Source: a virus (taxonomy: Duplodnaviria > Caudoviricetes). Taken from it: DNA of 64,000 nt. The notes under the pieces are model-generated. The model saw nothing but the letters and a program-made list of their open reading frames with translations, was not told where the DNA came from and made no database searches. Shown here piece by piece: positions 10,744 through 64,000 of this stretch (positions are counted from its first letter, which is position 1; every line of letters begins with the position of its first letter). Position numbers and translations under genes: made by a program. The stretch covers positions 1-64,000 of IMG/VR virus record IMGVR_UViG_3300038300_000071. The stretch is one strand, 5' to 3'.

Positions 10744-12210
10744 GTGGATAATAATACAGAAGAAAAGAATGCAGAGCTTTTATTAGGACAGTTTTTCAAA
10801 AACACAATCTTTGAAAACAAGATATTCTCAGTCGGTGGCTTTGTTAGAGATGAAATAATGGGACTGAAGTCTAAAGATCTAGATTTAGTTGTTAGCTCTG
10901 ATGGCGGTTCTGAGGAAGTTGTACATGCCCTCAAAAGTCAACTTACTAACTCTGTCACCAATCCTCACAATCTTGGCAATGGCTTTCCAATTTGGCAGAT
11001 AACTTTTACTGACAACGTTCATTTCAACAATACTGAATGGAAAGTAAAAGGAGCAATTTTAGAATTTGCCGACACTCAAAAGGAATCCTTTCCTGATCAA
11101 GAATCAAGACAACGTATAACATCTTTTGGAACATTGGAGGAAGATGTTCTTAGACGTGACTTCACTTGCAACATGCTTATGAGAAATATTACCAATGGTG
11201 AAATTTTAGATTTGGCAAATGGCATTGAAGATATCAAAAATGGAATATTGCGTTCACATCCAAAAGCCGACTTTGATAAAATACTATCAGATGATCCACT
11301 TAGAATGCTAAGGCTTGTTAGATTTCAAGCTAAATTTGGATGGGAGATAAGATGGTCTGATCTTGAAGTTGTAATACGAAACAGAGAAAGAATAAAGATT
11401 ATTTCTGCTGAGCGTATCAATGCGGAGCTTACTAAAATAATGGAAATGGGAAAACTTGATAAGGCTGTCTGGTTTATGAAAAGAACTGGATTGCTTGAAA
11501 TCATTTTTCCTGAAGTTCATGCAATGATTGGTGTATTTCATGATTTAAAACAGCCTTTCCATAAAGAGTGCAAAGGAGAAGTGTTTGGACATGTTATGAA
11601 AGTATTAAGCCACGCTAAACCTGGAGTCATTCCTCAAATGTCAGCATTGCTACATGATATAGGAAAACCTCCAACTAGAGCGGAAGATGAGAATGGAAGA
11701 ATTAGATTTTCAAAACATGAGCCTGTTGGTGCTGAAATGGCAGAAGTGGTTCTAAGAAGGATAAAGTTTGACACTTCAACTATCAAAAGGATTGTCAAGT
11801 TGGTTGAAATGCATACAGATCCTCACGCTTTTGGAAGAAATAACGTTGGCGTTGAACCTTCAATCAAAGCAGTTAGAAAGCTTATCAGAAAGGCTGGGGA
11901 TGCATTGGAAGATTTGTTAGATCTTGCAGAAGCAGATTGCTTGGGAAATGAGCCTCTTCGAAATAATGTTCCTGACTTAAGAATTCGAATTAAGGAAGTT
12001 TTGGAAATTTCACCTCCAATTATTGCCAAGCCTATTTTAAACGGACATGAAGTTATGTCTATTCTAAATATTAAAGGCGGACAGATCATAGGAGAAATAA
12101 GAAAAGCTCTTATTGACTTGGAAGATGATTTCGCAAATGATGAGAAAGAATTGACCAAAGAAATAGCTGAGGAGTTTGTAAGGAACTTTAAACAGGATGG
12201 TGAGGGATGA
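10744..12210 (+). CDS. cca: CCA tRNA nucleotidyltransferase with HD domain (class II NTase)
   Basis: VGGFVRD, KDLDL, EEDVLRRDFTCN, DDPLRMLRLVRF, SAERINAEL, LLHDIGKP. Confidence 0.9.
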   Translation: MDNNTEEKNAELLLGQFFKNTIFENKIFSVGGFVRDEIMGLKSKDLDLVVSSDGGSEEVVHALKSQLTNSVTNPHNLGNGFPIWQITFTDNVHFNNTEWKVKGAILEFADTQKESFPDQESRQRITSFGTLEEDVLRRDFTCNMLMRNITNGEILDLANGIEDIKNGILRSHPKADFDKILSDDPLRMLRLVRFQAKFGWEIRWSDLEVVIRNRERIKIISAERINAELTKIMEMGKLDKAVWFMKRTGLLEIIFPEVHAMIGVFHDLKQPFHKECKGEVFGHVMKVLSHAKPGVIPQMSALLHDIGKPPTRAEDENGRIRFSKHEPVGAEMAEVVLRRIKFDTSTIKRIVKLVEMHTDPHAFGRNNVGVEPSIKAVRKLIRKAGDALEDLLDLAEADCLGNEPLRNNVPDLRIRIKEVLEISPPIIAKPILNGHEVMSILNIKGGQIIGEIRKALIDLEDDFANDEKELTKEIAEEFVRNFKQDGEG

Positions 12211-21870: not shown

Positions 21871-23877
21871 ATGTCAGAATTTAAAGTTTTAAAGAATGCT
21901 GTAAAGAAAAAGTTTGATGAGATGAGCAAGTATGACTTGTTTGTAACGGACGTAAGTAAAGACGACATCTGGGATGTATATATTAATAGTTTCCCAGAGG
22001 GCACAAATCCAATTTATAAAGAAAGAACTGAACATGATTGCCAGTGCTGCAAGCAGTTCTTAAGAGCGGTTGGTGGTGTTGTAAGTATCATCGACGGAAA
22101 AGTCGTTTCTGTTTGGGATGTTGAGATTGAGGGATTTTATCAAGAAGTCGCCAATGCTCTTTCTGCTTATGTTAAATCTAAAGCAATTAAAAATGTATTC
22201 CGTCATTATGAAAATTCTGCCGGAACGGATAAGAGTATTCAGTTGGTTGAAGAAACTACTGTAACTTGGGGTCATTTTTTCTGCAAGCTTCCTGCGAAGT
22301 TTGTAAAGAGCAATGATGACATTGCTTCTCAACTGTCTGATTACCGCAGCAACTTTGATGTATTGAAGCGTTCTCTTGAAGAAATAACTCTTGATTCTGC
22401 TGAGACAGTTCTTGAGCTGATTGATCAGAATTCACTTTATCGTGGAGCTGAGCATGAAGGAATTGTAACAAAGTTTGTAAGCATTAAAAAAGCTTTCGAT
22501 AAAATTAAAGAGATTGATCGTGAAGTTTTCCTTTGGGAAAAATCTGTCAAGCTTAAAGGCGCTTCTAAGATTCGTAATACTGTTATTGGAAGTTTGCTGA
22601 TTGACTTGTCGGAGGATAAGGATTTAGACTCATCTGTTAAAAGTTTTGAATCAAAAGTAGCTCCTACGAATTATAAGCGTCCAACTGCTTTAATCACAAA
22701 AGGCATGATTGCAAAGGCTCAAACTAAAGTTGCAGAGCTTGGACTTGAAGATTCTTTGGAAAGACGATTTGCAGTAGAGAAGGACATTACTATCAATAAT
22801 GTTTTATTTGCTGACAGAGAAGTCAAAGCCAACATGAATGTGTTTGATGAAATGTCTGATGAAGTTGTAACTAAGTCTAAGAGTTTGGAAAAGGTTGAAG
22901 AAATTGACATCAAAGATTTCCTTGATCGAGTTGTTCCAAAGGCTGATTCTATTGAAGTTTTGGTAGAGAATAAGCATAGTGGTAATTTCATGAGTTTGAT
23001 TGCTCCAAGCAATCCAGATTCTAAGAACATGCTTAAATGGAAGAACAACTTCTCATGGGCTTACAATGGCGAATTGACAGACTCCATCAAAGACCGTGTT
23101 AAGAGTGCTGGTGGTAATGTTATGGGCGATCTACGCTGTTCTTTATCTTGGTTTAATGGTGATGATCTAGATATCCATGTTCATGAGCCTTGCGGCAATA
23201 AGATTCATTATGGAAATAAAAATAATCGTTTGACTGGCGGAACGCTTGATGTTGATATGAATGCTGGTGGAGCGAGTTCAAGAACTCCAGTAGAGAATAT
23301 AACATGGGCCAACAGAAAGAAAATGAATGAAGGCGTTTACAAAGTTATTGTTCACAATTTTTCAAAGCGTGAAACTGTTGATGTTGGTTTTGATGCAGAG
23401 ATTGAGTTTGATGGAAATATTACATCATTCAGTTATGACAAAGCTGTAGCGAACGATAAAAAGGTTACAGTTGCTGAGTTTAAGTATTCTCATAAGAATG
23501 GAATTGAGATGATTAAGACTTTGCCAACTTCATCTTCTTCTAAAGAAGTGTGGAACGTTAACACTGAGACATTCAACAAAGTCAAGATGATTATGAATTC
23601 TCCTAATCATTGGGATAATGATGAGACTGGCAATAAGCATTGGTTTTTCATTGTTGATAAGTGTAATAGTGGGGAGAGAGGCCGAGGATTTTTTAATGAG
23701 TTCTTAAATGAGGATCTTCGTGAGCACAGAAAAGTGTTTGAAGTGTTAGGATCTAAATTGAAGGCAGAGCAATCTGACAATCAGTTAAGTGGTTTAGGGT
23801 TTTCATCAACGCAAAGGAATCACGCTTATTTCAAAGTGTCTGGTAAATTTGCAAGAACAGTAAAAGTTAATTTTTAA
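21871..23877 (+). CDS. Conserved large-phage protein with YfaP/DUF2135-like C-terminal domain
   Basis: HDCQCC Zn site; DDLDIHV.EP.G..I.Y...GG.LDVD.N...PVENI.W motif. Confidence 0.65.
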   Translation: MSEFKVLKNAVKKKFDEMSKYDLFVTDVSKDDIWDVYINSFPEGTNPIYKERTEHDCQCCKQFLRAVGGVVSIIDGKVVSVWDVEIEGFYQEVANALSAYVKSKAIKNVFRHYENSAGTDKSIQLVEETTVTWGHFFCKLPAKFVKSNDDIASQLSDYRSNFDVLKRSLEEITLDSAETVLELIDQNSLYRGAEHEGIVTKFVSIKKAFDKIKEIDREVFLWEKSVKLKGASKIRNTVIGSLLIDLSEDKDLDSSVKSFESKVAPTNYKRPTALITKGMIAKAQTKVAELGLEDSLERRFAVEKDITINNVLFADREVKANMNVFDEMSDEVVTKSKSLEKVEEIDIKDFLDRVVPKADSIEVLVENKHSGNFMSLIAPSNPDSKNMLKWKNNFSWAYNGELTDSIKDRVKSAGGNVMGDLRCSLSWFNGDDLDIHVHEPCGNKIHYGNKNNRLTGGTLDVDMNAGGASSRTPVENITWANRKKMNEGVYKVIVHNFSKRETVDVGFDAEIEFDGNITSFSYDKAVANDKKVTVAEFKYSHKNGIEMIKTLPTSSSSKEVWNVNTETFNKVKMIMNSPNHWDNDETGNKHWFFIVDKCNSGERGRGFFNEFLNEDLREHRKVFEVLGSKLKAEQSDNQLSGLGFSSTQRNHAYFKVSGKFARTVKVNF

Positions 23878-52378: not shown

Positions 52379-52441
52379 AGAATGCGAAGTAGTCGTAAGA
52401 ACAAATGATGTGTGAGTATGAATAAATATTTAAAAAGTTAC

Positions 52442-52470
52442 TTGACATGTAGGCAATTAAGAAGTATATT
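52442..52470 (+). promoter_or_regulatory. Sigma70 promoter of tRNA cluster 1
   Basis: TTGACA-17 nt-TATATT. Confidence 0.85.
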
Positions 52471-52513
52471 TGTGTTATAAGATTTAAAAACAATTTAAAA
52501 AGAGAAAGAAAAA

Positions 52514-52591
52514 ATGTTTAACAAGATTACAGCGATTGAACCTAAAGGGCCGGAAGCGATTAAGCTTTCAGGGCTAGGTGCGTTGCTGTAG
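52514..52591 (+). CDS. Putative attenuator leader peptide 1 (MFNKITAIEPKGPEAIKLSGLGALL)
   Basis: 25 codons; codons 7-17 are all A/I/E/P/K/G, matching the downstream tRNAs; contains the antiterminator segment 52564-52575. Confidence 0.8.
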   Translation: MFNKITAIEPKGPEAIKLSGLGALL

Positions 52592-52620
52592 TGATTTAAA
52601 AAACATTAGTAACAATCTTT

Positions 52621-52659
52621 AAAAGCCCTGAAAGCGTAAAAGCTCTCAGGGCTTTTTTT
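52621..52659 (+). terminator. Attenuator terminator upstream of tRNA cluster 1
   Basis: AGCCCTGAAAGC/GCTCTCAGGGCT stem plus T7; the 5' arm is perfectly complementary to 52564-52575. Confidence 0.88.
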
Positions 52660-52673
52660 ATGTAAAAATTTAA

Positions 52674-52747
52674 CTGTGTGTATGTCAGTCTGGTAGACAA
52701 CTCCCCTTGGATGGGAGAAGCCGTTCGTTCAAATCGAACCACACAGA
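52674..52747 (+). tRNA. tRNA-Pro(TGG), with A37
   Basis: CTGTGTG/CACACAG acceptor, CTCCC-CTTGGAT-GGGAG, TTCAAAT T loop. Confidence 0.85.
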
Positions 52748-52758
52748 CTTTTTAAATT

Positions 52759-52832
52759 GGGGAATTAGCTCATTTGGCTAGAGCGCTGCCTTTGCAAGGC
52801 AGAGGTAACGAGTTCGAACCTCGTATTCTCCA
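52759..52832 (+). tRNA. tRNA-Ala(TGC)
   Basis: GGGGAAT/ATTCTCC (G3:U70), CTGCC-TTTGCAA-GGCAG. Confidence 0.93.
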
Positions 52833-52927
52833 CTGGTTGGTTTGAGTTTCAGTTAGTATTTTCTGTTCTCATGTAGACAAAAATGGAAAAATGAAGGAAA
52901 GGCAACCTTTTGAAAAAATGTCTATAT

Positions 52928-53002
52928 GCTACGATATGCAAATTAGTTAAGCAGCTTTTCTGATAAAGAAGTGATTTTCAGGTGCAAGTCCTGATCGTAG
53001 TA
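52928..53002 (+). tRNA. tRNA-Ile(GAT)
   Basis: GCTACGA/TCGTAGT, CTTTT-CTGATAA-AGAAG, atypical T loop TGCAAGT. Confidence 0.78.
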
Positions 53003-53008
53003 CTTTAA

Positions 53009-53079
53009 GTCTCTATGGTGTAATGGTAGCACAAGCGGTTTTCATCCGCTAGGACTCGGATCGTAACCGTGTAGAGGTA
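53009..53079 (+). tRNA. tRNA-Glu(TTC)
   Basis: GTCTCTA/TAGAGGT, AGCGG-TTTTCAT-CCGCT, atypical T loop ATCGTAA. Confidence 0.78.
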
Positions 53080-53161
53080 TTTTAAGAAATAAAAGATGAA
53101 GTATTTAAGAGTTAGATGTAGATTTTAAAAAAAGTGATTGTATAGTAGTTCAAGTAATTAA

Positions 53162-53235
53162 CGGAATGTAGCGCAGTCTGGTAGCGCGTCTCGTTTGGGA
53201 CGAGAAGGTCGCAGGTTCGATCCCTGTCATTCCGA
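53162..53235 (+). tRNA. tRNA-Pro(TGG), second copy
   Basis: CGGAATG/CATTCCG, TCTCG-TTTGGGA-CGAGA. Confidence 0.93.
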
Positions 53236-53297
53236 TTTTTTAAAAAGAAAATAATAGGACGCAAGTGGGTTCTGAAATATGATAGGGATTTGGTAAA

Positions 53298-53963
53298 ATG
53301 GTAAAGAATTTAAATTTTGTAGTTTTAGCTTTAATTTTGGTTGTTTCTTTTGGTTGTGAGACTTTAGTGAAGAGGAGTTCTCTGGGGTCTTATGAAAAAG
53401 TTCTTTCATGGGGAGAAAGCGAAAAATTATATTATAGTAATTATAATTTTGTATATGTTGAGAGAGGAAAGAGTCATACGTTTGATGGAGTGAGTCGTGT
53501 TTATGATGCGGAGTTGATTGGATCAAGACAGGGAGAGAATTTAACTGTTTCCGAAGTTAGAGTCTTCTACAGAGATAAGTCCAAGTCATTTAAAGTAAAC
53601 AGGCCCGTTCTGAGTTTTGGAAATACTAAAGAGAATGGATATGGAGATAAGATTAAGACAGGCGGAATGCATTACATGTCGGCTGGATATCTTGATGATC
53701 TTTTGGCAGATGTTGGCAGATATAGGAAGTTGCTTGCGGGCAGTTATGAGCATTCTTCTGGCGCTAAAATAGTCCTAGATGAGAATGGAGAGGGTGTTTC
53801 TGGGAGTGAGAAGATTTTATTGTCAAATCAGTTTGGAAGGTCTGATCTTGTACTTACGAATGGACAAAGAAATCTTCCAGTTTTATCATTTGATGAAGGC
53901 GGCATGGTTCTTGGAAACGAGAAACATAAAATAGTTTTCAAGAAGATTAATGTTAAAAAATAA
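53298..53963 (+). CDS. Putative lipoprotein within the tRNA cluster
   Basis: Signal peptide with a lipobox-like VSFGC. Confidence 0.55.
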   Translation: MVKNLNFVVLALILVVSFGCETLVKRSSLGSYEKVLSWGESEKLYYSNYNFVYVERGKSHTFDGVSRVYDAELIGSRQGENLTVSEVRVFYRDKSKSFKVNRPVLSFGNTKENGYGDKIKTGGMHYMSAGYLDDLLADVGRYRKLLAGSYEHSSGAKIVLDENGEGVSGSEKILLSNQFGRSDLVLTNGQRNLPVLSFDEGGMVLGNEKHKIVFKKINVKK

Positions 53964-53977
53964 GATTTATGATTGTT

Positions 53978-54097
53978 GATCATGCTGCGGTATGGTCGCA
54001 CTTTGATGACATGGCAATTTCGCTACCGCATCAAAGATCGAATTGGATAGCGGTATCCGATTTGACGGAATTGAGCAACTGCCGAAAAGGGTGCTCA
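53978..54097 (+). ncRNA. Candidate structured ncRNA (pseudoknot plus two hairpins)
   Basis: TGCGGTA/TACCGCA and CTTTGA/TCAAAG in A-B-A'-B' order; AATTGGATA/TATCCGATT; TGAGCA/TGCTCA. Confidence 0.45.
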
Positions 54098-54100
54098 CAA

Positions 54101-54216
54101 CAGTGTATGGCTGATATTGGTTAGGCTCGTCGATATTTATGATTACTAAATACACATTTAATGTGGCGGTGATTTCTATGATCTTCGATATTTGGGTTCG
54201 ATTCCCGAAACACTGA
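54101..54216 (+). ncRNA. tRNA-like RNA with an extended anticodon arm
   Basis: CAGTGT/ACACTG acceptor, D-arm with TGGTTA, TTGGG-TTCGATT-CCCGA T arm; about 60-nt hairpin replaces the anticodon arm. Confidence 0.6.
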
Positions 54217-54242
54217 TAGTTTTGAAAAGAAGAGTAGTATAT

Positions 54243-54314
54243 GCGAAAGTAGCTCAATGGTAGAGCACCATCCTTCCAAGTTGGTTGTTGCGGGTTCGAG
54301 TCCCGTCTTTCGCT
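54243..54314 (+). tRNA. tRNA-Gly(TCC)
   Basis: GCGAAAG/CTTTCGC, loop CTTCCAA, U73. Confidence 0.92.
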
Positions 54315-54342
54315 TTTAGAATTATAAATTGGAGAATCCATA

Positions 54343-55064
54343 ATGGGAATATTTTATTCATATTGCACAAGATGCAATAAACAACTTAGGTATTTTATTG
54401 AGTATGGTCATGATGGAATCGAGTGTGATGTATGTTCTCATTTCAATATCGATAGTGATGTAAAGGGAACACTTTTTAAATATAACAATGGCAGGCCGGA
54501 TGGCGCATTGAATATATGGGGAGAAGAAATAATGGAAAGTAAAATGAAACGAAAGATAAAACATAGCATTTAAAGCCTTCTAAGTTGGGGAGGCAAAAAT
54601 TAATGCCTCCGTAGCTCAGTTGGTTAGAGCATCTGACTTTTAATCAGAATGTCATGGGTTCGAATCCCATCGGGGGCACTTTCAAAAGGGAGACGTTCGT
54701 GAACAACATAGATTATTTAAGAGAAGATTTAGCTCGGATTCTAGATAAGAGCAGTAGTCTGAGTTGTGAGTTTCTAAGTGCAGTTCTTGAGTTGAATATT
54801 ATGCGAAGAGAATTTAAAGTTTCGATGGGATCTAATTTTGATGGATTCTTGACAATAGGGTATAAAGAAGTATATAAATAAAAACAAAGAGGAAATAACA
54901 TGGTTTACAGTTTTAATTTTAGTGCGGAAGATGAAGTAGACGTAATTCAAGTTTTGGAAACTAAAAATGGATACGTTTACTTTCAAGATGGTGATAGAAA
55001 GGGAAGAATAGAAGAAAAGTTCTTTGCGATGAACTTTACCCATGTTGAAGCTCCACTGGTATAA
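54343..55064 (+). CDS. Small ORFs between tRNAs (54343-54573; 54699-54881 with GTG start; about 54900-55064)
   Basis: SD sites; the first two carry the DG.L.I motif. Confidence 0.55.
54605..54678 (+). tRNA. tRNA-Lys(TTT)
   Basis: GCCTCCG/CGGGGGC, TCTGA-CTTTTAA-TCAGA. Confidence 0.93.
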
Positions 55065-55082
55065 TAAAAAGAAACAATATAT

Positions 55083-55118
55083 AAAAAGGACTTACTTTAA
55101 ATAGTAAGTCCTTTTTTT
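55083..55118 (+). terminator. Intrinsic terminator, probable end of tRNA operon 1
   Basis: AAGGACTTACT/AGTAAGTCCTT stem plus T run. Confidence 0.75.
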
Positions 55119-55141
55119 GTATAGTAATTATAAAATATACT

Positions 55142-55678
55142 ATGGTGGAAGAAATGTCGGTTCGTAAAGTAATATGGTTAACGGGAATGTCTGGTGCGGG
55201 AAAATCAACTATATCTTCAATGCTTGAAGAGAAGCTTTTGGTTAAAGGGTATAGTGTGAAAATACTAGATGGAGATGAAGTCAGGGAAAATCTAACTTCT
55301 GATCTTGGCTTTAGCAAGAAGGACAGAGATGAAAATGTAAAAAGAATTTCTTATGTGGCTAAATGTATATGCGATGTTGACGGGGTGGCCATAGTTGCTG
55401 CTATTTCTCCATACAAGGATGCAAGGCAGAAGGCTATATCTTTAATTGGTGAAGATAACTTTTTAGGAGTTTTTGTCAAGTGTGATATTGATACGCTGAT
55501 AAGCAGAGATGTTAAGGGTTTGTATGAAAAGGCTATTCGTGGTGACATTCCAAATTTCACAGGAATAAGCGATCCTTATGAAGATCCTTTAGGTTTTGAA
55601 GTTGTTTGTAATACAGCGGTAGAGACTATTGAAGAATCGGCAAACAAGATAATCAAGAAGTTGGAAGGTAAATCCTAA
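55142..55678 (+). CDS. cysC: Adenylyl-sulfate kinase
   Basis: WLTGMSGAGKST, LDGDEVR, LGFSKKDRDEN, ISPY, RDVKGLY, FTGISDPYE. Confidence 0.96.
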   Translation: MVEEMSVRKVIWLTGMSGAGKSTISSMLEEKLLVKGYSVKILDGDEVRENLTSDLGFSKKDRDENVKRISYVAKCICDVDGVAIVAAISPYKDARQKAISLIGEDNFLGVFVKCDIDTLISRDVKGLYEKAIRGDIPNFTGISDPYEDPLGFEVVCNTAVETIEESANKIIKKLEGKS

Positions 55679-55981
55679 GTTTTTTTATATTCTAGCCGTA
55701 TGTAAACAGCTAGGGTCTAAAGATGTCAAGAAAAGTTATCATAAGTCTTTTTAAGTGCAGGCTAGATTGCAATCCTTTTGAGACGATAGAGAATAAGCCA
55801 GACGGGGCGTTGATGATATGGGGATTGAGCAGCATTCCAAGCTGTTATGATTTTCAGAATTATTTAGATTATATCAGAGATGCAATCGATATGAATAAAT
55901 CAAAGTAAAATTCTTCTTTAAAAATTATATTTCTTTTATAAAATTCATATTAGTAAATAAATGCTAACGTGGAGTTTTTAA

Positions 55982-56980
55982 ATGGGATATATCAAGAATC
56001 CTTCTGATAATGGTCAGTTTTGGAGAGAATCAGCGGCTAATGATAGCGCCTCTGTTTGGCATGGTTTTGATAGTAAAAATAACGGTAAAGACAAATTTTT
56101 CAAATCAGAAACATTGCCAAATAATCCAGATACCTTGAAAGAAACTGGAACTGTTTCTTCTAGTGGCGATAGGCTGTTGGCTGGTGTTTATGGAGATATT
56201 CCAAGTGTTTCTCTTTGGACTCCTGAGTCTATTATTACTGACGTTTGGTTTGATGCTTCTGATTCTAGCACCATTACTGAAATTGGGGGCCGAGTTAGTC
56301 AGTTGGATGACAAGAGTAATAATGCTGTACCTCAGAATATTGCTCAAGGGGTTGGATCGGAGCAGCCACAGACAGGAGTTGACACTTTAAATGGTTTGAA
56401 TGTGCTTACATTCGATGAGGCTTTCGATGAGGGTTTACAAAAGAATGGATGGGATAACATCGGTAAAGCGGGTAGTTTTTCTGTCTTTACTGTTGGGAAG
56501 ATGACGTCGAGTACAAATGGAAGCTTCCTAAACCTTCAAGATGATATGCATACTTACAGAAATAGATTTGATCCATATGGAAAGAGAACGTCGAGCAGTG
56601 TTCCAAAGTCCGTCAGTTATACAGAGCCAAGCTCGGCATACATTCTTAACGGAAATGCAAGATATGATGTGAGTCACACACTTCCTGACAGTTATTTCAA
56701 CGTTTTCATAAATGGTACACAAGAGGGTGTTAATGCCTTCTTCGACAATCCATTGCCAGAGAATGCCCCCAGTCCAAGGCTTGCAATGATGACTGCCAAC
56801 AATCCTGCCATTACAAATAGTGGAATAGTTGCAGAAGTTATAATCACCGAGGATATTGATGAAGTGTCTAGACAGAGAGTGGAAGGCTATTTGGCTTGGA
56901 AGTGGGGATTGGTAGACAGTCTTCCATCTAATCACCCTTATAAAAATAAACCTCCATACATTACTAGCGGAAACTTATAG
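55982..56980 (+). CDS. Lectin-like cassette gene 1 (constant N-terminus plus variable LamG/ConA-like domain)
   Basis: MGYIKNPSDNGQ.WRESAA...KSETLPN, then WFDASD...EGYLAWKWG. Confidence 0.8.
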   Translation: MGYIKNPSDNGQFWRESAANDSASVWHGFDSKNNGKDKFFKSETLPNNPDTLKETGTVSSSGDRLLAGVYGDIPSVSLWTPESIITDVWFDASDSSTITEIGGRVSQLDDKSNNAVPQNIAQGVGSEQPQTGVDTLNGLNVLTFDEAFDEGLQKNGWDNIGKAGSFSVFTVGKMTSSTNGSFLNLQDDMHTYRNRFDPYGKRTSSSVPKSVSYTEPSSAYILNGNARYDVSHTLPDSYFNVFINGTQEGVNAFFDNPLPENAPSPRLAMMTANNPAITNSGIVAEVIITEDIDEVSRQRVEGYLAWKWGLVDSLPSNHPYKNKPPYITSGNL

Positions 56981-57043
56981 AGATTAGAGATATTTCTTTT
57001 ATAAAATTCATATTGGTAAATAAATGCTAATATGGAGATTCAA

Positions 57044-57985
57044 ATGGGATATATCAAGAATCCTTCTGATAATGGTCAGTTTTGGAGAGAATCAGCGGCT
57101 AATGACAGCGCTTCTGTTTGGCATGGTTTTGATAGTAAGAATAATGGTAAAGACAAATTTTTCAAATCAGAAACATTGCCAAATAATACAAAGGCTTTAA
57201 GTGAGTCTGGGTCTATTGCTTCTAGTGGTAATAGATTAATTGCTGGGGTTTATGGAGATCAAGCTTCTCTTCCTGCAAGTCTTTGGAATCCTTCTCTGAT
57301 GACATCTGTGGGTTGGTACGATGCTGATGATAGTTCTACAATTACAGAGTCTGCTGGAGCTATTAGCCAATGGGATGATAAGTCTGGGAATGACAATCAT
57401 GCTGTTCAGGGCGTTGGAAGCAAACAGCCAATTTACAATGCAAGTGATCCCGTGTTCGGTGGAAAGCCTTCCATATTGGGCGTTTTGGGTGATTATTTAG
57501 AAACTCCATCTATGTCAATAAATAGAATGTATTTAACTTTATATTTGGACGGTGTGGCAACGGCATGGCCAAATCATAATGCGGTAGTATCAGGGCCTTC
57601 TTTCCGTTTAACGGGTAGAGTTGGTGATGTTCACGTATGGGATGGCCCTAGAGACAATAAGAATTTTGATTTTAATGGAAGTACATTTAGGGATGGAAGT
57701 ACTGTTGATGTTAATTACGATCCAACTGGTTTGCCGATGGCGGGTGACATCTTTAGGATAAACGCTGAAAGCACAAAGACTCAAGTTTGGAGGTTGATGG
57801 GGAATACTCAAACATATACAACTTGGCATGGTGGTTTGGCAGAGGTGATATTTACAGACGGATCAGAGGATTTCAACACACAGCAAAAAATAGAAGGTTA
57901 CCTTGCTTGGAAGTGGGGATTTGTGGACAAGTTTCCAGCTGAGCATCCTTACAAGTCAGCTCCTCCATATATAGATGCTTATTAA
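57044..57985 (+). CDS. Lectin-like cassette gene 2
   Basis: Same architecture; start aligned to the paralogs. Confidence 0.8.
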   Translation: MGYIKNPSDNGQFWRESAANDSASVWHGFDSKNNGKDKFFKSETLPNNTKALSESGSIASSGNRLIAGVYGDQASLPASLWNPSLMTSVGWYDADDSSTITESAGAISQWDDKSGNDNHAVQGVGSKQPIYNASDPVFGGKPSILGVLGDYLETPSMSINRMYLTLYLDGVATAWPNHNAVVSGPSFRLTGRVGDVHVWDGPRDNKNFDFNGSTFRDGSTVDVNYDPTGLPMAGDIFRINAESTKTQVWRLMGNTQTYTTWHGGLAEVIFTDGSEDFNTQQKIEGYLAWKWGFVDKFPAEHPYKSAPPYIDAY

Positions 57986-58054
57986 GATCATTTAAAAATT
58001 ATATTTCTTTTATAAAATTCATGTTAGTAAATAAATGCTAATATGGAGATTTAA

Positions 58055-58996
58055 ATGGGATATATCAAGAATCCTTCTGACAATGGTCAGTCTTGGAGAG
58101 AATCAGCCGCTGATAATTCGGCTATCCGTTGGCATGGTTTCGATAGTAAGAATAATGGTAAAGACAAATTTTTCAAATCAGAAACATTACCAAATGATCC
58201 AGACGCACTTGTTGCTGCTGGAGTCAATGCTTCTAGCGGTGATAGACTATTGGCTGGTGTTTATGGAGATATTCCAAGTGTTAATCTTTGGACTCCTGCT
58301 GGAGTCGTTACAGAACTTTGGCTTGATGCCACCGATGCTTCAACTATTACAGAATTATCTGGATCTGTGAGTCAGTGGGATGATAAGAGTGGTAGCGGTA
58401 ACGACTTCCCTCAGGGAAATGCATCCAGACAACCTATAACGGGAGTAAGAACTCTCAATGGCCTAAATGTTCTCGATTTCGATGGTGGTGATAGCATGCA
58501 AAGAGGGAGTTTGGCGAATGTGGCGAATGACTTCATTATGGTAGGAGTTTGGGATGTAGATTCGGGCGCAACACTGTTTTCAGAAACAGGTTCTCCTCAG
58601 GCTTGGAATGCAACAACTGCTGGTCTCACTACGCAATTGGATGGCACTATGCTTTACTCTGGAGGCACGATAAGCGGAGCAACTGTCGTTTCTTTTGATA
58701 TGAATCCTACGGGCCTTAATGCAGAGGCTTTTGTAAACGGAGAAAGTCAGGCAATACTTGCTCTGACGCAAAGCCTTGGAAATAGTACTGCCCGTATAGC
58801 TGCGAACTTTGTTGGCGGTTCTAATGTAGTTGGAGGAATGGGTGAAATGGTTATCTCCGATGACCGATCAGTAGAAACTCGTCAAAAGATCGAAGGATAC
58901 TTGGCTTGGAAGTGGGGTACGGAATCTGATCTTCCAGTTGGACATCCGTATAAGAACAAACCTCCATATATCACTAGTGGAAGTTTATTAGTTTAA
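58055..58996 (+). CDS. Lectin-like cassette gene 3
   Basis: Same architecture. Confidence 0.8.
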   Translation: MGYIKNPSDNGQSWRESAADNSAIRWHGFDSKNNGKDKFFKSETLPNDPDALVAAGVNASSGDRLLAGVYGDIPSVNLWTPAGVVTELWLDATDASTITELSGSVSQWDDKSGSGNDFPQGNASRQPITGVRTLNGLNVLDFDGGDSMQRGSLANVANDFIMVGVWDVDSGATLFSETGSPQAWNATTAGLTTQLDGTMLYSGGTISGATVVSFDMNPTGLNAEAFVNGESQAILALTQSLGNSTARIAANFVGGSNVVGGMGEMVISDDRSVETRQKIEGYLAWKWGTESDLPVGHPYKNKPPYITSGSLLV

Positions 58997-59054
58997 AAGG
59001 ATATTTCTTTTATAAAATTCATGTTGGTAAATAAGTGCTAATATGGAGATTTAA

Positions 59055-59996
59055 ATGGGATATATCAAGAATCCTTCTGACAACGGACAGTTTTGGAGAG
59101 AATCAGCGGCCAATGATAGTGCTTCTGTTTGGCACGGTTTTGATAGTAAAAATAATGGTAAAGATAAATTTTTCAAATCAGAAACATTGCCAAATGATCC
59201 AAAATCTTTAATTGCATCTGGAGCTATTGCTTCTAGTGGCGATAGATTTTTAGCTGGTGTTTATGGTGATCTTCCAAAAGTTTCTCTTTGGACTCCTGCA
59301 AAAATAGCCACATCTCTTTGGCTGGATGCCTCTGATCCTGCTACAATAACTGAGTCGGTAGGATCGGTCAGTCAGTGGGATGATAAGTCTGGAAATGGTA
59401 ACAATGTAATACAAGCCTCAGGAGTCAATCAGCCAGAAACTGGAGTAAGAGATATTAATGGATTAAACGTTCTTGATTTTGATGGCTCGGACAGCATGAC
59501 AAGAGGGGCTTTGGCGAGCAGATCTGATGATTTCATTGTGGTTGGCGTTTGGTATGTGGATTTTGTTATTTCAAGTCGCAGGAAGAATACGATGTTCGCA
59601 CAATCTGGGATATCTCAAGATTGGAATATGACAACCTCCGATATAGTCTTGCAGAGTGATGGATCTGATGCTTATTCTGGAGGCGTTTTGGCTGGTGTTA
59701 GTAGTATTATTTCTTATGATGTTAATTTTTCTGGATTGAATACTGAGGCTTTTATTAATGGTTCCAGTGAAGCGAATGTTGTGATGTCTCAGTCAGTAGG
59801 AAATTCCACAACAAATATTGGCATAGGGTTTACCGCTTCGAATTTCAATTTTTTCGGAGGTATGGGAGAGATTATTATCTCTAACGATAGATCTGTATCA
59901 ACTCGTCAAAAAATAGAAGGCTATCTTGCTTGGAAGTGGGATCAAGTTTCCAAGCTTCCTGCTGATCATCCTTATAAGAATGTACCACCCTGTTGA
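59055..59996 (+). CDS. Lectin-like cassette gene 4
   Basis: Same architecture. Confidence 0.8.
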   Translation: MGYIKNPSDNGQFWRESAANDSASVWHGFDSKNNGKDKFFKSETLPNDPKSLIASGAIASSGDRFLAGVYGDLPKVSLWTPAKIATSLWLDASDPATITESVGSVSQWDDKSGNGNNVIQASGVNQPETGVRDINGLNVLDFDGSDSMTRGALASRSDDFIVVGVWYVDFVISSRRKNTMFAQSGISQDWNMTTSDIVLQSDGSDAYSGGVLAGVSSIISYDVNFSGLNTEAFINGSSEANVVMSQSVGNSTTNIGIGFTASNFNFFGGMGEIIISNDRSVSTRQKIEGYLAWKWDQVSKLPADHPYKNVPPC

Positions 59997-60041
59997 TGGT
60001 GGTTGACTGAATCTTTATAAATACTAACATGGAGTTTTTAA

Positions 60042-60986
60042 ATGGGATATATCAAGAATCCTTCTGACAATGGTCAGTCTTGGAGAGAATCAGCGGCCAA
60101 TGATAGCGCTTCTATCTGGCATGGTTTCGATAGTAAGAATAATGGTAAAGACAAATTCTTTAAATCAGAAACATTGCCCAATGGTACAAAGGCTTTAAGT
60201 GAGTCTGGGTCTATTGCTTCTAGTGGTAATAGATTATTAGCTGGTGTTTATGGTAATCAATCTTCACTTCCTGCAAGCCTTTGGACTCCTAACAATATAA
60301 CTACATCAGCTTGGTTTGATGCTTCTGATGCGTCAACTATCACAGAGTCTGCCAATAAAGTTTCTCAATGGGATGATAAAAGTGGAAATAGCAAACACGC
60401 TGTGCAAGCAACTGGATCTCAACAACCGACCTATAAGCCTACCGATGCTAATATGAATGGGATGGGTAGTATCGGAGTTACAAGTAATACTGGAGCGAAA
60501 GGATTAGAAGTACCATCATTCGGAGCGAAGATTTGCTATACAGTCATTAGAAATGACAACGCCAACTTCTCATCATTCGATGTGCTGCTTGCAGGTGCGC
60601 TTGATAGATACCTTGTTCGTGGTAGTTCAGGAACTCCAGACTTCTATACTATCGGAACTCTTGAGTTCAATGATTTTACATATAAGAATGGTTCCACGGT
60701 AAGCACGGCCTTAAACGTACTTCCAATGCCGACAGCAACGATTTTCAAATTTGAAAGTGCCGCAATAAGAGAGCAGACATGGAGTTTCGGGTTTGGTAAT
60801 CAATGGGCTGGCAATAATAGAACATGGGATGGTGCTTATTCAGAGTTTATATTTACAGATGGAACTGAGGACTTATCTACACAGCAAAAGATCGAAGGAT
60901 ACCTAGCTTGGAAATGGGGAACAGAAGCTTCATTGCCTGTTAGTCATCCTTACAAGTCAGCTCCTCCATATATAGATGCTTATTAA
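60042..60986 (+). CDS. Lectin-like cassette gene 5
   Basis: Same architecture. Confidence 0.8.
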   Translation: MGYIKNPSDNGQSWRESAANDSASIWHGFDSKNNGKDKFFKSETLPNGTKALSESGSIASSGNRLLAGVYGNQSSLPASLWTPNNITTSAWFDASDASTITESANKVSQWDDKSGNSKHAVQATGSQQPTYKPTDANMNGMGSIGVTSNTGAKGLEVPSFGAKICYTVIRNDNANFSSFDVLLAGALDRYLVRGSSGTPDFYTIGTLEFNDFTYKNGSTVSTALNVLPMPTATIFKFESAAIREQTWSFGFGNQWAGNNRTWDGAYSEFIFTDGTEDLSTQQKIEGYLAWKWGTEASLPVSHPYKSAPPYIDAY

Positions 60987-61044
60987 TAGGATATTTCTTT
61001 TATAACTTTGTATTAGTAAATAAATGCTAACGTGGAGATTTTAA

Positions 61045-62076
61045 ATGGGATATATCAAGAATCCTTCTGACAATGGTCAGTTTTGGAGAGAATCAGCGGC
61101 TAATGATAGCGCTTCTATCTGGCATGGTTTCGATAGTAAGAATAATGGTAAAGACAAATTTTTCAAATCAGAGACATTGCCAAATGATCCAGCCGCACTT
61201 TCTGCCGCTGGAGTTAATGCTTCCAATGGAGATAGATTTTTAGCTGGTGTTTATGGAGATCAGTCTTCACTTCCTGCAAGCCTTTGGAATCCCGCTGAAA
61301 TATCCACTGAAGCTTGGTTCGATGCCAATGATGCTTCAACTATTACAGAATCAGCAGGAGCTGTAAGTCAGTGGGATGACAAGTCTGGCAATGTAAGAAA
61401 TCTTATTAACGCAACTGGCGTTCAACAGCCAATGACTGGAATTAGAACAATAGGCGGTTTAAACGCCCTAGATGCCGACGGGGTTACTCAACACCTATAT
61501 AACATTACAAACTTTGCATTTCCTGCCAGTGGAAACTTTATGGTGTTTGCGGTTGCAGTAGTAGACTCTTGCAGTGACAGAAATCAAGCTATATGGGCTT
61601 GGGATGATGATGTTGATATACAACTTGATAGTGCGCAAAACATTAATGAGTTCAGAGGTCGATTGTTTAACACTGACCCGACAAATCAAAACTTGCTATA
61701 CTCAACTAGCGACCCTGCACCATCTGGCTCAGTTATCGGACTAGACACGATGTGGACTACGGTCATGGACTTCACCGCAACGGAGAGTCACTTATATCGG
61801 AACGGACTTAATAGTGTGCTTAATCCAACAAAACTATATGCTAACAAGGTAACTAGTACTGGATTGCAACAGTTTACTGCGTTTCTAGGTGGATTCCCTA
61901 TTGCGTTTACTCATTTGCTTGATGGCGCAATAGGAGAGTTGCTTATGGTAGAAGGAACTGACACTATTACTCAACAAAAGATGGAAGGCTATCTTGCTTG
62001 GAAGTGGGGACTAGTCGCTAAACTCCCATCTGGTCATCCTTACAAGTCAGCTCCTCCATATATAGATGCTTATTAA
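61045..62076 (+). CDS. Lectin-like cassette gene 6
   Basis: Same architecture. Confidence 0.8.
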   Translation: MGYIKNPSDNGQFWRESAANDSASIWHGFDSKNNGKDKFFKSETLPNDPAALSAAGVNASNGDRFLAGVYGDQSSLPASLWNPAEISTEAWFDANDASTITESAGAVSQWDDKSGNVRNLINATGVQQPMTGIRTIGGLNALDADGVTQHLYNITNFAFPASGNFMVFAVAVVDSCSDRNQAIWAWDDDVDIQLDSAQNINEFRGRLFNTDPTNQNLLYSTSDPAPSGSVIGLDTMWTTVMDFTATESHLYRNGLNSVLNPTKLYANKVTSTGLQQFTAFLGGFPIAFTHLLDGAIGELLMVEGTDTITQQKMEGYLAWKWGLVAKLPSGHPYKSAPPYIDAY

Positions 62077-62079
62077 TAG

Positions 62080-62221
62080 GATATTTCTTTTATAAAATTC
62101 GTATTAGTAAATAGCTTGGTACGACCCATCAGATGAGAGCACTATAACTGAATCGGCAGGAGCGGTATCTCAGCTTGATGATAAGAGTGGTAATGATTAC
62201 GACCTCGTTCAAGCTTCTGGA
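62080..62221 (+). pseudogene. Remnant of a seventh cassette
   Basis: Upstream element GATATTTCTTTTATAAAATTC.TATTAGTAAATA fused directly to AWYDPSDESTITESAGAVSQLDDKSGNDYDLVQASG (62114-62221); no start codon. Confidence 0.8.
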
Positions 62222-62277
62222 GAATTAGTCATTAAGTCTAGATTGAGAGAATAAGTGATAAAAACTCTAAAAAGAAC

Positions 62278-62306
62278 TTGCAATTAACTATTTATCATGG
62301 TATATT
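62278..62306 (+). promoter_or_regulatory. Sigma70 promoter of tRNA cluster 2
   Basis: TTGCAA-17 nt-TATATT with extended TG. Confidence 0.8.
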
Positions 62307-62362
62307 GGTTACACAGAAGAAAAAAGTATTATTAAAAACAATTTAAAAGAAAGAGATTTAAA

Positions 62363-62440
62363 ATGAAATTTTCAAGCTACAATTTAAGCAATTGTTCGAG
62401 TTACTTATATAGTAATTCGTATGATCCTGTGCTTAAATGA
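62363..62440 (+). CDS. Putative attenuator leader peptide 2 (MKFSSYNLSNCSSYLYSNSYDPVLK)
   Basis: 25 codons; codons 4-20 are all S/Y/N/L(TTA)/C, matching the downstream tRNAs. Confidence 0.85.
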   Translation: MKFSSYNLSNCSSYLYSNSYDPVLK

Positions 62441-62465
62441 GGTAGCAAATAATTTTAAATATTTG

Positions 62466-62506
62466 AATCCCCTTTTGAGCTAATCACTCAGAAGGGGATT
62501 TTTTTT
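62466..62506 (+). terminator. Attenuator terminator upstream of tRNA cluster 2
   Basis: AATCCCCTTTTGAG/CTCAGAAGGGGATT 14-bp stem plus T run. Confidence 0.88.
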
Positions 62507-62519
62507 GTTTGGATTTTAT

Positions 62520-62609
62520 GGAGATAGTCCGGCATGGACGAGGACACTGTTTTGAAAGCAGCTGCGCACTAATACGGCGTCGAGGGTTCGATTCCCTCTG
62601 TCTCCGCCA
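62520..62609 (+). tRNA. tRNA-Ser(TGA), with encoded CCA
   Basis: GGAGATA/TGTCTCC-G-CCA, loop TTTGAAA, long variable arm. Confidence 0.88.
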
Positions 62610-62641
62610 TTTTTAAAAGATAGGAAAGTAAGAAGTTAAAT

Positions 62642-62714
62642 GAACAATTGGCCGATTGGATATAGGCGCAGGATTGCAAACCCTGTTAGGCGAGTTCGAT
62701 TCTCGCATTGTTCT
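62642..62714 (+). tRNA. tRNA-Cys(GCA)
   Basis: GAACAAT/ATTGTTC, loop TTGCAAA, U73. Confidence 0.88.
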
Positions 62715-62718
62715 CTAA

Positions 62719-62808
62719 GGAATGGTATAACGAAATTGGTATCGTCGCTGGTTGCTAACCAGTTCAGCAGGTTAAATGGCTGTGTGGGTTCGAGTCCCAC
62801 TCATTCCG
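62719..62808 (+). tRNA. tRNA-Ser(GCT)
   Basis: GGAATGG/TCATTCC-G, loop TTGCTAA, long variable arm. Confidence 0.9.
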
Positions 62809-62828
62809 CTTTAATGAAGAAGTTTGAA

Positions 62829-62905
62829 GTGTATATTTGTCCAAGGTGGCGATATGTTACGCATTGTAGTTCAGGAACTAGGTTCGAGTCCTAGCTTATA
62901 TGCAC
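62829..62905 (+). ncRNA. Atypical tRNA-like element (possible CAT anticodon; non-canonical geometry)
   Basis: GTGTATAT/ATATGCAC stem, CTAGG-TTCGAGT-CCTAG T arm, irregular D and anticodon arms. Confidence 0.45.
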
Positions 62906-62913
62906 TTTTTTTT

Positions 62914-62986
62914 GATGGAGTAACCAAATTGGTATTGGTCTTGCCTGTTAAGCAAGTATGAGTGAGTTCGATTCTCATCTCCATCT
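62914..62986 (+). tRNA. tRNA-Asn(GTT)
   Basis: GATGGAG/CTCCATC, CTTGC-CTGTTAA-GCAAG; unusual U discriminator. Confidence 0.8.
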
Positions 62987-62990
62987 TTTT

Positions 62991-63062
62991 AGGCGTGTAT
63001 CTCAATGGTAGAGACTTCGGTTGTTACCCGAAAGGTTGCTGGTTCGAGTCCAGCCGTGCCTG
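62991..63062 (+). tRNA. tRNA-Asn(GTT), second copy
   Basis: AGGCGTG/CGTGCCT-G, TTCGG-TTGTTAC-CCGAA. Confidence 0.88.
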
Positions 63063-63078
63063 TTGTTAGTAAGAATAA

Positions 63079-63160
63079 GCCGCTGTGGGGGAATTGGCAT
63101 ACCCGACGAGTTTAAGCCTCGTTGCCTTTGTGCATGAGAGTTCGAATCTCTCCAGCGGTA
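63079..63160 (+). tRNA. tRNA-Leu(TAA)
   Basis: GCCGCTG/CAGCGGT-A, ACGAG-TTTAAGC-CTCGT, long variable arm. Confidence 0.9.
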
Positions 63161-63167
63161 TTAACAT

Positions 63168-63241
63168 AGCTCTGTAGCCGAATTGGCATAGGCGGCAGTC
63201 TCAAAAACTGTAATTTACAGGTTCGAGTCCTGTCAGAGCTA
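63168..63241 (+). tRNA. tRNA with CAA anticodon (Leu) and short variable loop
   Basis: AGCTCTG/CAGAGCT-A, GCAGT-CTCAAAA-ACTGT, variable loop AATTT. Confidence 0.8.
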
Positions 63242-63245
63242 CTAT

Positions 63246-63320
63246 GTATTCATAGCTTAATGGTAAAGCGCAGTAGCAAATTGTATGAGCAAGATGTTGG
63301 TTCGATTCCAGCTGAATACG
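63246..63320 (+). pseudogene. tRNA-like element with intact acceptor, D and T arms but no anticodon stem
   Basis: GTATTCA/TGAATAC, GCTT-AATGGT-AAAGC, GTTGG-TTCGATT-CCAGC. Confidence 0.6.
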
Positions 63321-63339
63321 TTAATGGAAATAAATATAA

Positions 63340-63421
63340 GTCGTCGTATATGTCTAAGGAGGACATCCAGTCTGTAAAACTGGCGCTTTGAGCTCGGTGG
63401 GATCGTTACCCACAGGCGACA
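63340..63421 (+). tRNA. tRNA-Tyr(GTA)
   Basis: CCAGT-CTGTAAA-ACTGG, long variable arm, T loop ATCGTTA, A73. Confidence 0.8.
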
Positions 63422-63425
63422 TTTT

Positions 63426-63470
63426 AAAAAAACTCTTTTAGTCTGATATAATAGGCTGAAAGAGTTTTTT
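63426..63470 (+). terminator. Terminator closing tRNA operon 2
   Basis: AAACTCTTTTAGTCT/AGGCTGAAAGAGTTT stem plus T run. Confidence 0.7.
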
Positions 63471-64000
63471 ATGGATTACAGACATGAGCGAAGGAACGGG
63501 AGCGTGTAATGGAAAATATACTTAAAGGGTTGCATGAGAAAGATCCTGCAAACAGGGTTGAATTTTCTTGTTTGAATAAGAATAAAGTTTTATGTTGGAT
63601 ATGCTATAAGGACGGCAAGAGGATTTTATCTGGATGCGAATCGGGAAAGAATCACAAAGAGGCCTTGGAAAATACAATGAATAACTTAAAAGAATAAGGA
63701 TTGTTATGACTAATTCTACAGCGAAGTATCCTTTTATTCCAGAGTCAGCGGAAGGAAGAGTTGTTAATATTACTTGGACGGATGACGATGAATTTAAAAT
63801 GTTTGGAAAGTATAAGTGGAAGAATGGCGAAACTAAAACGATCAAGACGGAAGAGTGGTGGGTGGTTAGAAATGATGTTCACGGAAGATCTACTCTGTAT
63901 AATTCTAGTCATGGAAGTGATAACTCGAATTCATTTACGACTGAGAACGGGATTACGGTAAGAGTTCAAATGAACAATGATTATCTTCAAGTTGGAGAGA

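Follow-up and report, generated by a model that had tools for sequence, protein, structure and literature searches.

Why phages carry genes for transfer RNAs (tRNAs) has been debated for fifty years, with codon compensation on one side and the replacement of tRNAs lost to defence or host shut-off on the other. The locus described here raises a related question, namely when such genes are transcribed. It lies at 52442-55123 in the first 64 kb (the window, that is, the whole stretch of DNA analysed) of the 202,452-bp IMG/VR record IMGVR_UViG_3300038300_000071, a phage of the Caudoviricetes whose record was estimated to be 62% complete. In this region a promoter, a 25-codon open reading frame (ORF; leader 1) and a terminator precede seven tRNA genes. 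From the arrangement of these parts it is considered likely that the region forms one transcription unit, in which the seven tRNA genes are gated by a ribosome-mediated transcription attenuator, and the tRNA block would probably be made only upon slow reading of the leader codons. The features of the putative switch and the tRNA genes behind it are listed below, where nt stands for nucleotides and UTR for untranslated region.

52442-52470, + strand: sigma-70-type promoter (-35 TTGACA at 52442-52447, 17-nt spacer, -10 TATATT at 52465-52470)
52484-52500, + strand: A/U-rich 5' UTR motif TTAAAAACAATTTAAAA, 17 nt, common to leaders 1 and 2
52514-52591, + strand: leader ORF of 25 codons, encoding MFNKITAIEPKGPEAIKLSGLGALL; the TAG stop is immediately followed by TGA
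52523-52564, + strand: sensor block, codons 4-17 (K I T A I E P K G P E A I K)
52540-52558, + strand: segment 1, the anti-antiterminator strand (codons 9-15 approximately), which pairs with segment 2 if free of the ribosome
52563-52576, + strand: segment 2, the antiterminator 5' strand (codons 17-21), with the core GCTTTCAGGGCT at 52564-52575
52621-52637, + strand: segment 3, the terminator 5' arm, which doubles as the antiterminator 3' strand (52623-52636), with the core AGCCCTGAAAGC at 52624-52635
52640-52663, + strand: segment 4, the terminator 3' arm (52640-52656) and then seven T (52657-52663)
52674-52748, + strand: tRNA-Pro(tgg)
52759-52833, + strand: tRNA-Ala(tgc)
52928-53003, + strand: tRNA-Ile(gat)
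53009-53079, + strand: tRNA-Glu(ttc)
53162-53235, + strand: a second tRNA-Pro(tgg)
54243-54314, + strand: tRNA-Gly(tcc), 69.9 bits
54605-54679, + strand: tRNA-Lys(ttt), 78.9 bits

The original prediction, an earlier note on this DNA made from its letters alone, had described a promoter, a 25-codon ORF, a terminator and seven tRNA genes, and all of them were recovered at the coordinates it gave. The promoter scores 11/12 and is the best sigma-70-type match within 50-64 kb, which would place the transcription start near 52477. A weak, purine-rich Shine-Dalgarno (SD) candidate, GAGAAAG, stands 3' of the UTR motif. The intrinsic terminator hairpin (52621-52656) has a free energy (dG) of -21.4 kcal/mol with a single internal A/C mismatch, and is followed by the seven T. 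From the last T at 52663 to the first nucleotide of tRNA-Pro at 52674 there is a gap of only 10 nt; this leaves no room for a promoter, and tRNA expression therefore needs read-through. ARAGORN and Rfam concur on the order Pro, Ala, Ile, Glu, Pro, Gly and Lys. Additional tRNAs in the spacers of the cluster were sought with ARAGORN at a low threshold, which gave intron-containing calls only; these were rejected as unreliable.

The codons of the leader correspond to the tRNAs that follow it. As the original prediction had it, and as the codon count confirmed, the tRNAs of this unit decode 13 of the 14 codons from 4 to 17, and none of the six amino acids (Pro, Ala, Ile, Glu, Gly and Lys) is missing; codons 7-12 encode Ala, Ile, Glu, Pro, Lys and Gly, each once. 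Over the whole leader the match at the level of amino acids is 16/24 where 9.4 would be expected (P = 6e-3). When strict wobble rules were applied together with the phage's own codon usage, the match was 14/24, against an expectation of 6.9 (P = 2.4e-3).

A second line of evidence comes from the alternative pairings of the leader RNA. The original prediction had pointed to a perfect antiterminator next to a terminator arm with one mismatch, and this was borne out: the strands 52564-52575 and 52624-52635 are complementary at 12/12 positions, with a duplex energy of -23.8 kcal/mol. Dinucleotide shuffles gave -11.5 +/- 2.3 kcal/mol, and none of 2000 was as strong. The complete 2:3 structure (52560-52638) has a dG of -29.5 kcal/mol. 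An anti-antiterminator hairpin formed by segments 1 and 2 (52540-52580; dG -16.0 kcal/mol) was also found and is contained in the minimum free energy fold. With this 1:2 hairpin present beside the 2:3 and 3:4 pairings, leader 1 is, in its predicted anatomy, a complete four-segment attenuator of the trp type. It had been proposed that the antiterminator wins unless a ribosome covers it; cover by the ribosome stands as one cause, and the 1:2 hairpin has to be added as another, since it too sequesters segment 2.

Through two folding models, the expected effect of a ribosome on this RNA was estimated. In ribosome-mask folding the bases beneath the ribosome are held unpaired, and the stall window obtained varies with the footprint assumed. 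At equilibrium, this model gave a terminator probability of 0.89 without a ribosome or with one at the stop codon, whereas an A site at codon 6 or at codons 9-12 lowered it to 0.01-0.32. A closer stand-in for the co-transcriptional decision is a nascent-RNA proxy, in which the RNA lacking the terminator 3' arm is folded. Here the pairing of the terminator 5' arm was 0.21 in ribosome-free RNA; it rose to 0.57-0.73 when the A site was placed at codons 2-15, and was 0.17 for an A site at codons 16-20. The effective stall window in these models is thus roughly codons 2-15, so that the sensor span of codons 4-17 given in the original prediction holds for the codon match and not for the modelled stall.

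Taken together, these elements suggest the following course of events. Host-type RNA polymerase would start at the strong promoter and transcribe the 25-codon leader. If the leader is read fast, segment 2 would be covered in transit or re-paired with segment 1 behind the ribosome, segments 3 and 4 would form the terminator, and transcription would end 10 nt 5' of the first tRNA gene. A ribosome that stalls within codons 2-15 or so, nearly all of which encode Lys, Ile, Ala, Glu, Pro or Gly, would hold segment 1 and free segment 2, which could then pair 12/12 with the terminator 5' arm before the 3' arm is made, allowing read-through into the tRNA genes. A stall at any one of the six codon kinds would be enough, which would make the leader a multivalent OR gate, and since the tRNA products would relieve the stall, the circuit would exert negative feedback on decoding capacity. 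We infer leader translation, its coupling to transcription and the response to tRNA shortage from the sequence. The proposal of a multi-input OR gate for tRNA shortage, already made in the original prediction, draws support from this anatomy, from its fourfold replication in the genome and from leaders of the cluster-2 type in two relatives, as set out below.

Whether the gate would control all seven tRNAs depends on the extent of the transcription unit, for which the remaining features of the region are needed.

53298-53963, + strand: 221-aa (amino-acid) ORF within the unit, with a hydrophobic N-terminus ending in Cys and without Pfam or PHROG match
54343-54573, + strand: 76-aa ORF between tRNA-Gly and tRNA-Lys, without family match
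54654-54881, + strand: small ORF without family match
54900-55064, + strand: small ORF without family match
55085-55114 (feature 55084-55123), + strand: end terminator, the first strong + strand intrinsic terminator 3' of the attenuator, bidirectional in form

Between 52663 and 55084, the only other sites with a hairpin followed by T are the T-arms of tRNAs, and the terminator at 55085-55114 would accordingly mark the end of the unit. As the next strong + strand terminator lies only beyond tRNA-Lys, the arrangement favours a single transcript for the proximal tRNAs and the distal Gly and Lys tRNAs, although it falls short of proof.

The design is found four times in this genome. Over the whole record, ARAGORN returned 29 tRNAs, which make up four clusters and one solitary CTA-anticodon tRNA. 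At the head of each cluster stand a promoter of the form TTG(A/C)(C/A)A-17-TATA(T/C)T, an ORF of 25-28 codons and a strong terminator. When both strands of the genome were scanned for a promoter, an ATG-initiated ORF of 12-45 codons and a strong terminator, four loci only were obtained, each directly 5' of one tRNA cluster. In a 4x4 comparison, the leaders matched their own clusters at the amino-acid level in 16/24, 14/24, 16/25 and 18/27 codons, and the other clusters in 0-9. Under strict wobble the P values of each leader with its own cluster were 2.4e-3, 7e-8, 4e-5 and 3e-6, and all off-diagonal cells were at or below expectation. Taken alone, leader 1 has the weakest codon statistic of the four, while its RNA switch is the clearest. 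Together, the four clusters serve all 20 amino acids.

The match extends to isoacceptors. For Gly, the sensor block of leader 1 uses GGG (Gly tcc in its cluster) and that of leader 4 uses GGC and GGT (Gly gcc); for Leu, leader 2 uses TTA (Leu taa) and leader 4 uses CTA and CTT (Leu tag). None of the four units contains a strong + strand terminator between the attenuator and the last matched tRNA, and the four tRNA sets end in terminators at 55085-55114, 63432-63465, 72288-72313 and 82472-82498. The second unit also lies within the window, and has the following parts.

62278-62306, + strand: promoter of unit 2
62363-62440, + strand: leader 2 ORF, encoding MKFSSYNLSNCSSYLYSNSYDPVLK
62465-62501, + strand: terminator of the leader
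63432-63465, + strand: end terminator, preceded by tRNAs Ser, Cys, Ser, Asn, Asn, Leu and Leu and by weak calls that include Tyr(gta) at 63343-63421

The four Tyr codons in leader 2 predict a tRNA-Tyr, and the weakly scoring tRNA-Tyr(gta) is found directly 5' of the unit-2 end terminator. Two further degenerate or unusual tRNA-like genes lie in this cluster, at 62829-62903 and 63245-63321; one of the two was called by ARAGORN at low threshold only, with a CAT anticodon, and the other, which scores 47 bits in Rfam, is typed by ARAGORN as a Cys(gca) tRNA bearing an extra arm. In leader 3 both Ile codons are ATA, which predicts that the CAT tRNA of cluster 3 (genome 69309-69383) is a lysidine-modified tRNA-Ile2 and not a tRNA-Met; pairwise identity to other phage tRNAs did not discriminate between these two identities for this gene. 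The solitary CTA-anticodon tRNA (genome 85860-85946, outside the window) is amber-suppressor-like and is labelled Pyl by ARAGORN; none of the four leader-terminator units stands in front of it. Stop-codon recoding was considered for this genome and rejected, as ORF coverage rose only from 0.85 to 0.86 when TAG or TGA was read as sense.

The same arrangement can be followed in relatives. A terminase search returned three records at 51-54% identity, and tRNA clusters were found in two of these, G001 and G003. In both, the first cluster shows a promoter, a short ORF and a terminator, followed by Phe, Leu, Ser, Val, Asn, Cys and Tyr tRNAs. The leader that stands with its terminator at the head of this cluster is MKTSLSYLYLVSCLFNSNFRRGMS in G003 and MKQLLSVSLFNVSCYSNSNYWRGLL in G001, the latter having a GTG start behind AGGAG. 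These leaders contain 16 (G003) and 17 (G001) consecutive residues among which only F, L, S, V, N, C and Y occur, and the tRNAs that lie downstream serve just these amino acids. Both are homologous to leader 2, with a common central hairpin and a GGAGGGG-type segment complementary to the terminator arm. In the relatives the Phe and Val tRNAs belong to this cluster, and F and V occur in the sensor blocks; in the phage studied here the Phe and Val tRNAs belong to other clusters, and codons 4-20 of leader 2 are without F and V. For the cluster-2 type, leader composition tracks the tRNA content of the cluster across relatives.

Several observations weigh against the attenuator reading of unit 1. 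The codon statistic of leader 1 taken alone is modest, with P values of about 2e-3 to 6e-3, since its six amino acids are common. Its SD pairing, at -2.9 kcal/mol, is no better than that of random positions and weaker than that of about 85% of the phage's long ORFs; all four leaders pair poorly, equalling random positions at best, and leader translation may lean on the A/U-rich UTR in place of an SD sequence. Codons 16-17 are matched, yet a modelled stall there favours termination, as a ribosome stalled at codons 16-21 would cover segment 2. A promoter-like site at 53861-53889 (10/12) might drive the Gly and Lys tRNAs separately. Leaders 2 and 4 showed no flip in either folding proxy; their antiterminators are weak (-10 and -13 kcal/mol) and overlap their own stop codons, and that of leader 2 was not stronger than shuffles. 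The 2:3 pairing of the trp attenuator is similarly weak, so this weakness is not disqualifying.

The comparative record belongs to the same side of the balance. No homologue of leader 1 was found by searches with the 221-aa ORF, with the upstream 252-aa protein or with a tRNA-Pro pattern. The 221-aa ORF had no matches in viral contigs or metagenome contigs; in a large protein collection it had one homologue, at 56%, on a 1591-bp ENA contig (L205). This closer relative keeps the order tRNA-Ala, Ile, Glu beside the homologue, and no leader lies within the contig, whose sequence ends upstream of tRNA-Ala. In the same contig, tRNA-Ala is preceded at a distance of 8 nt by the end of an ORF longer than 105 aa, in place of the tRNA-Pro of this phage, so the head of the cluster has been rearranged. 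The upstream 252-aa protein gave 494 homologues, in non-syntenic structural modules, and the tRNA-Pro anticodon-arm pattern gave a single match in metagenome contigs, which was discarded as unrelated, GC-rich and due to chance. The 17-nt UTR motif had more than 115 matches in viral contigs, mostly chance occurrences in AT-rich DNA. On the reverse strand of one unrelated IMG/VR contig (L104, around 10110-10236) this motif precedes a Lys-rich mini-ORF, MKRKQKSYKQV, and then three tRNA-Lys genes, with no clear T-tract terminator after the mini-ORF; this arrangement may have arisen by chance, the DNA being AT-rich, or may be a simpler version related to the design.

A tRNA-Ala pattern led to 13 unrelated phage tRNA clusters in viral contigs, and at six upstream regions of these no codon-matched leader was present. 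There were likewise no such leaders in the distant terminase relatives G004, G005 and G006 (33-40% identity), nor in the closer G007, G008 and G011, in which every tRNA typed by ARAGORN is Met(cat). Since distant relatives and unrelated phage tRNA clusters are without such leaders, the design is, as far as these sequences go, lineage-restricted.

How, then, should the locus be interpreted? One could regard the terminator as a constitutive one that closes the upstream structural-gene operon, whose gene ends at 52378, with a fortuitous ORF in front and with the tRNAs expressed through leaky read-through or unrecognised promoters. There is indeed no other terminator between the 252-aa gene and 52621, and the weak SD of the leader fits with a fortuitous ORF. 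However, a near-consensus promoter would then fire straight into a terminator, and both the 12/12 antiterminator and the 1:2 hairpin would be purposeless. The codon match of the ORF recurs in four units, with a combined P far below 1e-10, and homologous ORFs are kept in relatives despite sequence turnover, which makes a plain terminator very unlikely. It is also very unlikely, although the weak SD would again be in keeping with it, that the switch is real and answers to an effector other than the ribosome: direct binding of tRNA in the manner of a T-box, an antitermination protein of phage or host, or a small RNA. The alternative pairings by themselves do not identify the ribosome as effector. 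Yet Rfam returned no T-box or other riboswitch, whether the gathering score or an E of up to 1 was applied, and in an untranslated RNA there would be no need for the in-frame agreement between leader codons and downstream anticodons that is seen in four units and also in two relatives.

The same hardware could also serve another signal, such as amino-acid starvation or a general slowing of translation by uncharged tRNA or host shut-off, with the tRNA operons forming part of a broad stress or timing programme. As is known from the trp, his and thr attenuators, a leader attenuator is blind to whether a tRNA is missing or uncharged, and with four leaders that jointly cover the 20 amino acids, general slowing would open all four. 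Against this, amino-acid limitation is not helped by extra tRNA; a four-way partition with a match to own products down to the isoacceptor would be needless in a general sensor; and the content of the leaders in relatives follows the content of the clusters. This signal is accordingly judged improbable. The reading preferred here is that of an attenuator at which slow decoding of the leader opens the tRNA block. A broader proposal, that the four leaders form a complete on-demand tRNA replacement system, in which each would act as a live probe of host decoding and only the affected block would be made within minutes, is advanced tentatively and may well not hold. In such a system the tRNAs could be depleted by anticodon nucleases of the host (such as PrrC, RloC, PARIS-type or retron-linked tRNases) or by the decay of host tRNA after shut-off.

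Among known systems, the trp attenuator of Escherichia coli (trpL) resembles the locus in its promoter, its short leader ORF and its mutually exclusive 1:2, 2:3 and 3:4 pairings, as well as in an intrinsic terminator immediately 5' of the first gene and in regulatory codons that fall within or close to segment 1. The pairing energies are comparable, with about -11, -12 and -20 kcal/mol for trp. The two differ in several respects: tRNAs would be controlled here rather than biosynthetic enzymes; six codon kinds are involved rather than two Trp codons; the stop of leader 1 lies 14 nt past segment 2, whereas that of trpL lies between segments 1 and 2; and the antiterminator of leader 1 is stronger than its terminator (-23.8 vs -21.4 kcal/mol). 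No sequence similarity to trpL was found, and leader 1 did not match the Rfam Trp_leader family. More generally, Trp_leader, His_leader, Leu_leader, Thr_leader and Phe_leader gave no match, either at the gathering score or with E up to 1. All Rfam matches at gathering score are tRNA (RF00005), and the sub-threshold ones belong to unrelated families.

Leaders that respond to several amino acids with OR logic are known in thrL (Thr and Ile), ilvL of ilvGMEDA (Ile, Leu and Val) and ivbL (Val and Leu). These sense the end products of their own pathway, whereas leader 1 would sense how the codons served by the RNA products of its own operon are decoded; in addition, it has six inputs, and four leaders split the 20 amino acids. 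The nearest precedent is the pheST attenuator with its pheM leader, where a leader peptide controls a component of translation according to the state of the cognate tRNA. It differs in that its target is a synthetase, its input is one amino acid (Phe), it is bacterial and chromosomal, and its product is a protein. T-box riboswitches share with the locus a switch between terminator and antiterminator that depends on the state of a particular tRNA. They work without translation, by direct binding of uncharged tRNA to a specifier codon and the T-box motif, neither of which was found here, and they control synthetase and amino-acid genes and not tRNA genes; across 52400-63520 no Rfam T-box match was obtained at E up to 1.

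Experiments have used the his leader to gauge how fast codons are read and how tRNAs function (PMC4046918, PMC11805395), which supports the premise that the supply of tRNA can be sensed by a leader attenuator. PrrC cleaves tRNA-Lys, and GkaRloC prefers tRNA-Glu (PMC3458546, PMC2610378); the original prediction was correct in naming these two tRNAs as PrrC and RloC targets, a point of literature that has no direct bearing on the locus and is no evidence about it. Phage tRNAs have likewise been proposed as replacements for cleaved host tRNAs (PMC10264068), again with no direct bearing on the locus; that study makes no mention of promoters or terminators and says nothing on the control of phage tRNA genes. 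Phage tRNA clusters understood as codon compensation or as replacement after nuclease loss share the same functional setting, which is restored decoding during infection. The shortage-triggered switch would be new here. In the full-text literature searched, which holds few of the subscription journals, no description was found of tRNA genes under the control of a leader peptide, be it in phages or in other systems.

The genomic setting is that of a phage without close cultured relatives among those searched. The window has a G+C content of about 36%, the + strand carries nearly all genes, and hallmarks such as a terminase, a GroEL-like chaperonin, helicases and a CCA-adding enzyme are encoded. 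No close cultured relative was found, the top terminase match in the collection of cultured and GenBank phages being at 34% (an uncultured 485-kb phage), and megablast of the locus gave generic tRNA-Lys matches only. The phage-encoded tRNA nucleotidyltransferase (CCA-adding enzyme, PHROG 2244) is found at 10744-12210; the CCA end is not encoded in any of the seven tRNA genes of cluster 1. At 21871-23877, a 668-aa protein of PHROG 1735 (unknown function) has counterparts at about 55% identity in hundreds of cultured phages, among them those of enterobacteria and Acinetobacter, a conservation far above that of the rest of the genome. Directly 3' of the unit-1 end terminator, at 55142-55678, lies an auxiliary metabolic gene for adenylylsulphate (APS) kinase (PF01583, E = 5e-54). 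Between tRNA units 1 and 2, at 55982-62076, stand six tandem paralogous genes of 313-343 aa with repeated internal promoter-like sites, the first of which has a weak match to PHROG 10356 (virion structural protein).

Leader-peptide attenuation is known from amino-acid biosynthesis and from a few synthetase genes, and the locus described here would extend it to RNA products that feed back on their own sensor, and to viruses. The leaders predict operon membership, including that of weakly scoring tRNAs, and the identity of a CAT-anticodon tRNA, and as compact multi-input sensors of translation speed they could be reused in synthetic biology. If the reading is true, a shortage-triggered switch would present phage tRNAs as an inducible remedy and would provide a testable read-out of which shortages matter. 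Should the more tentative proposal of on-demand replacement also be true, it would represent the first known sensor-coupled counter-defence derived from a classical attenuator, and direct evidence that phage tRNAs cover acute shortages and not fixed gaps in codon usage.

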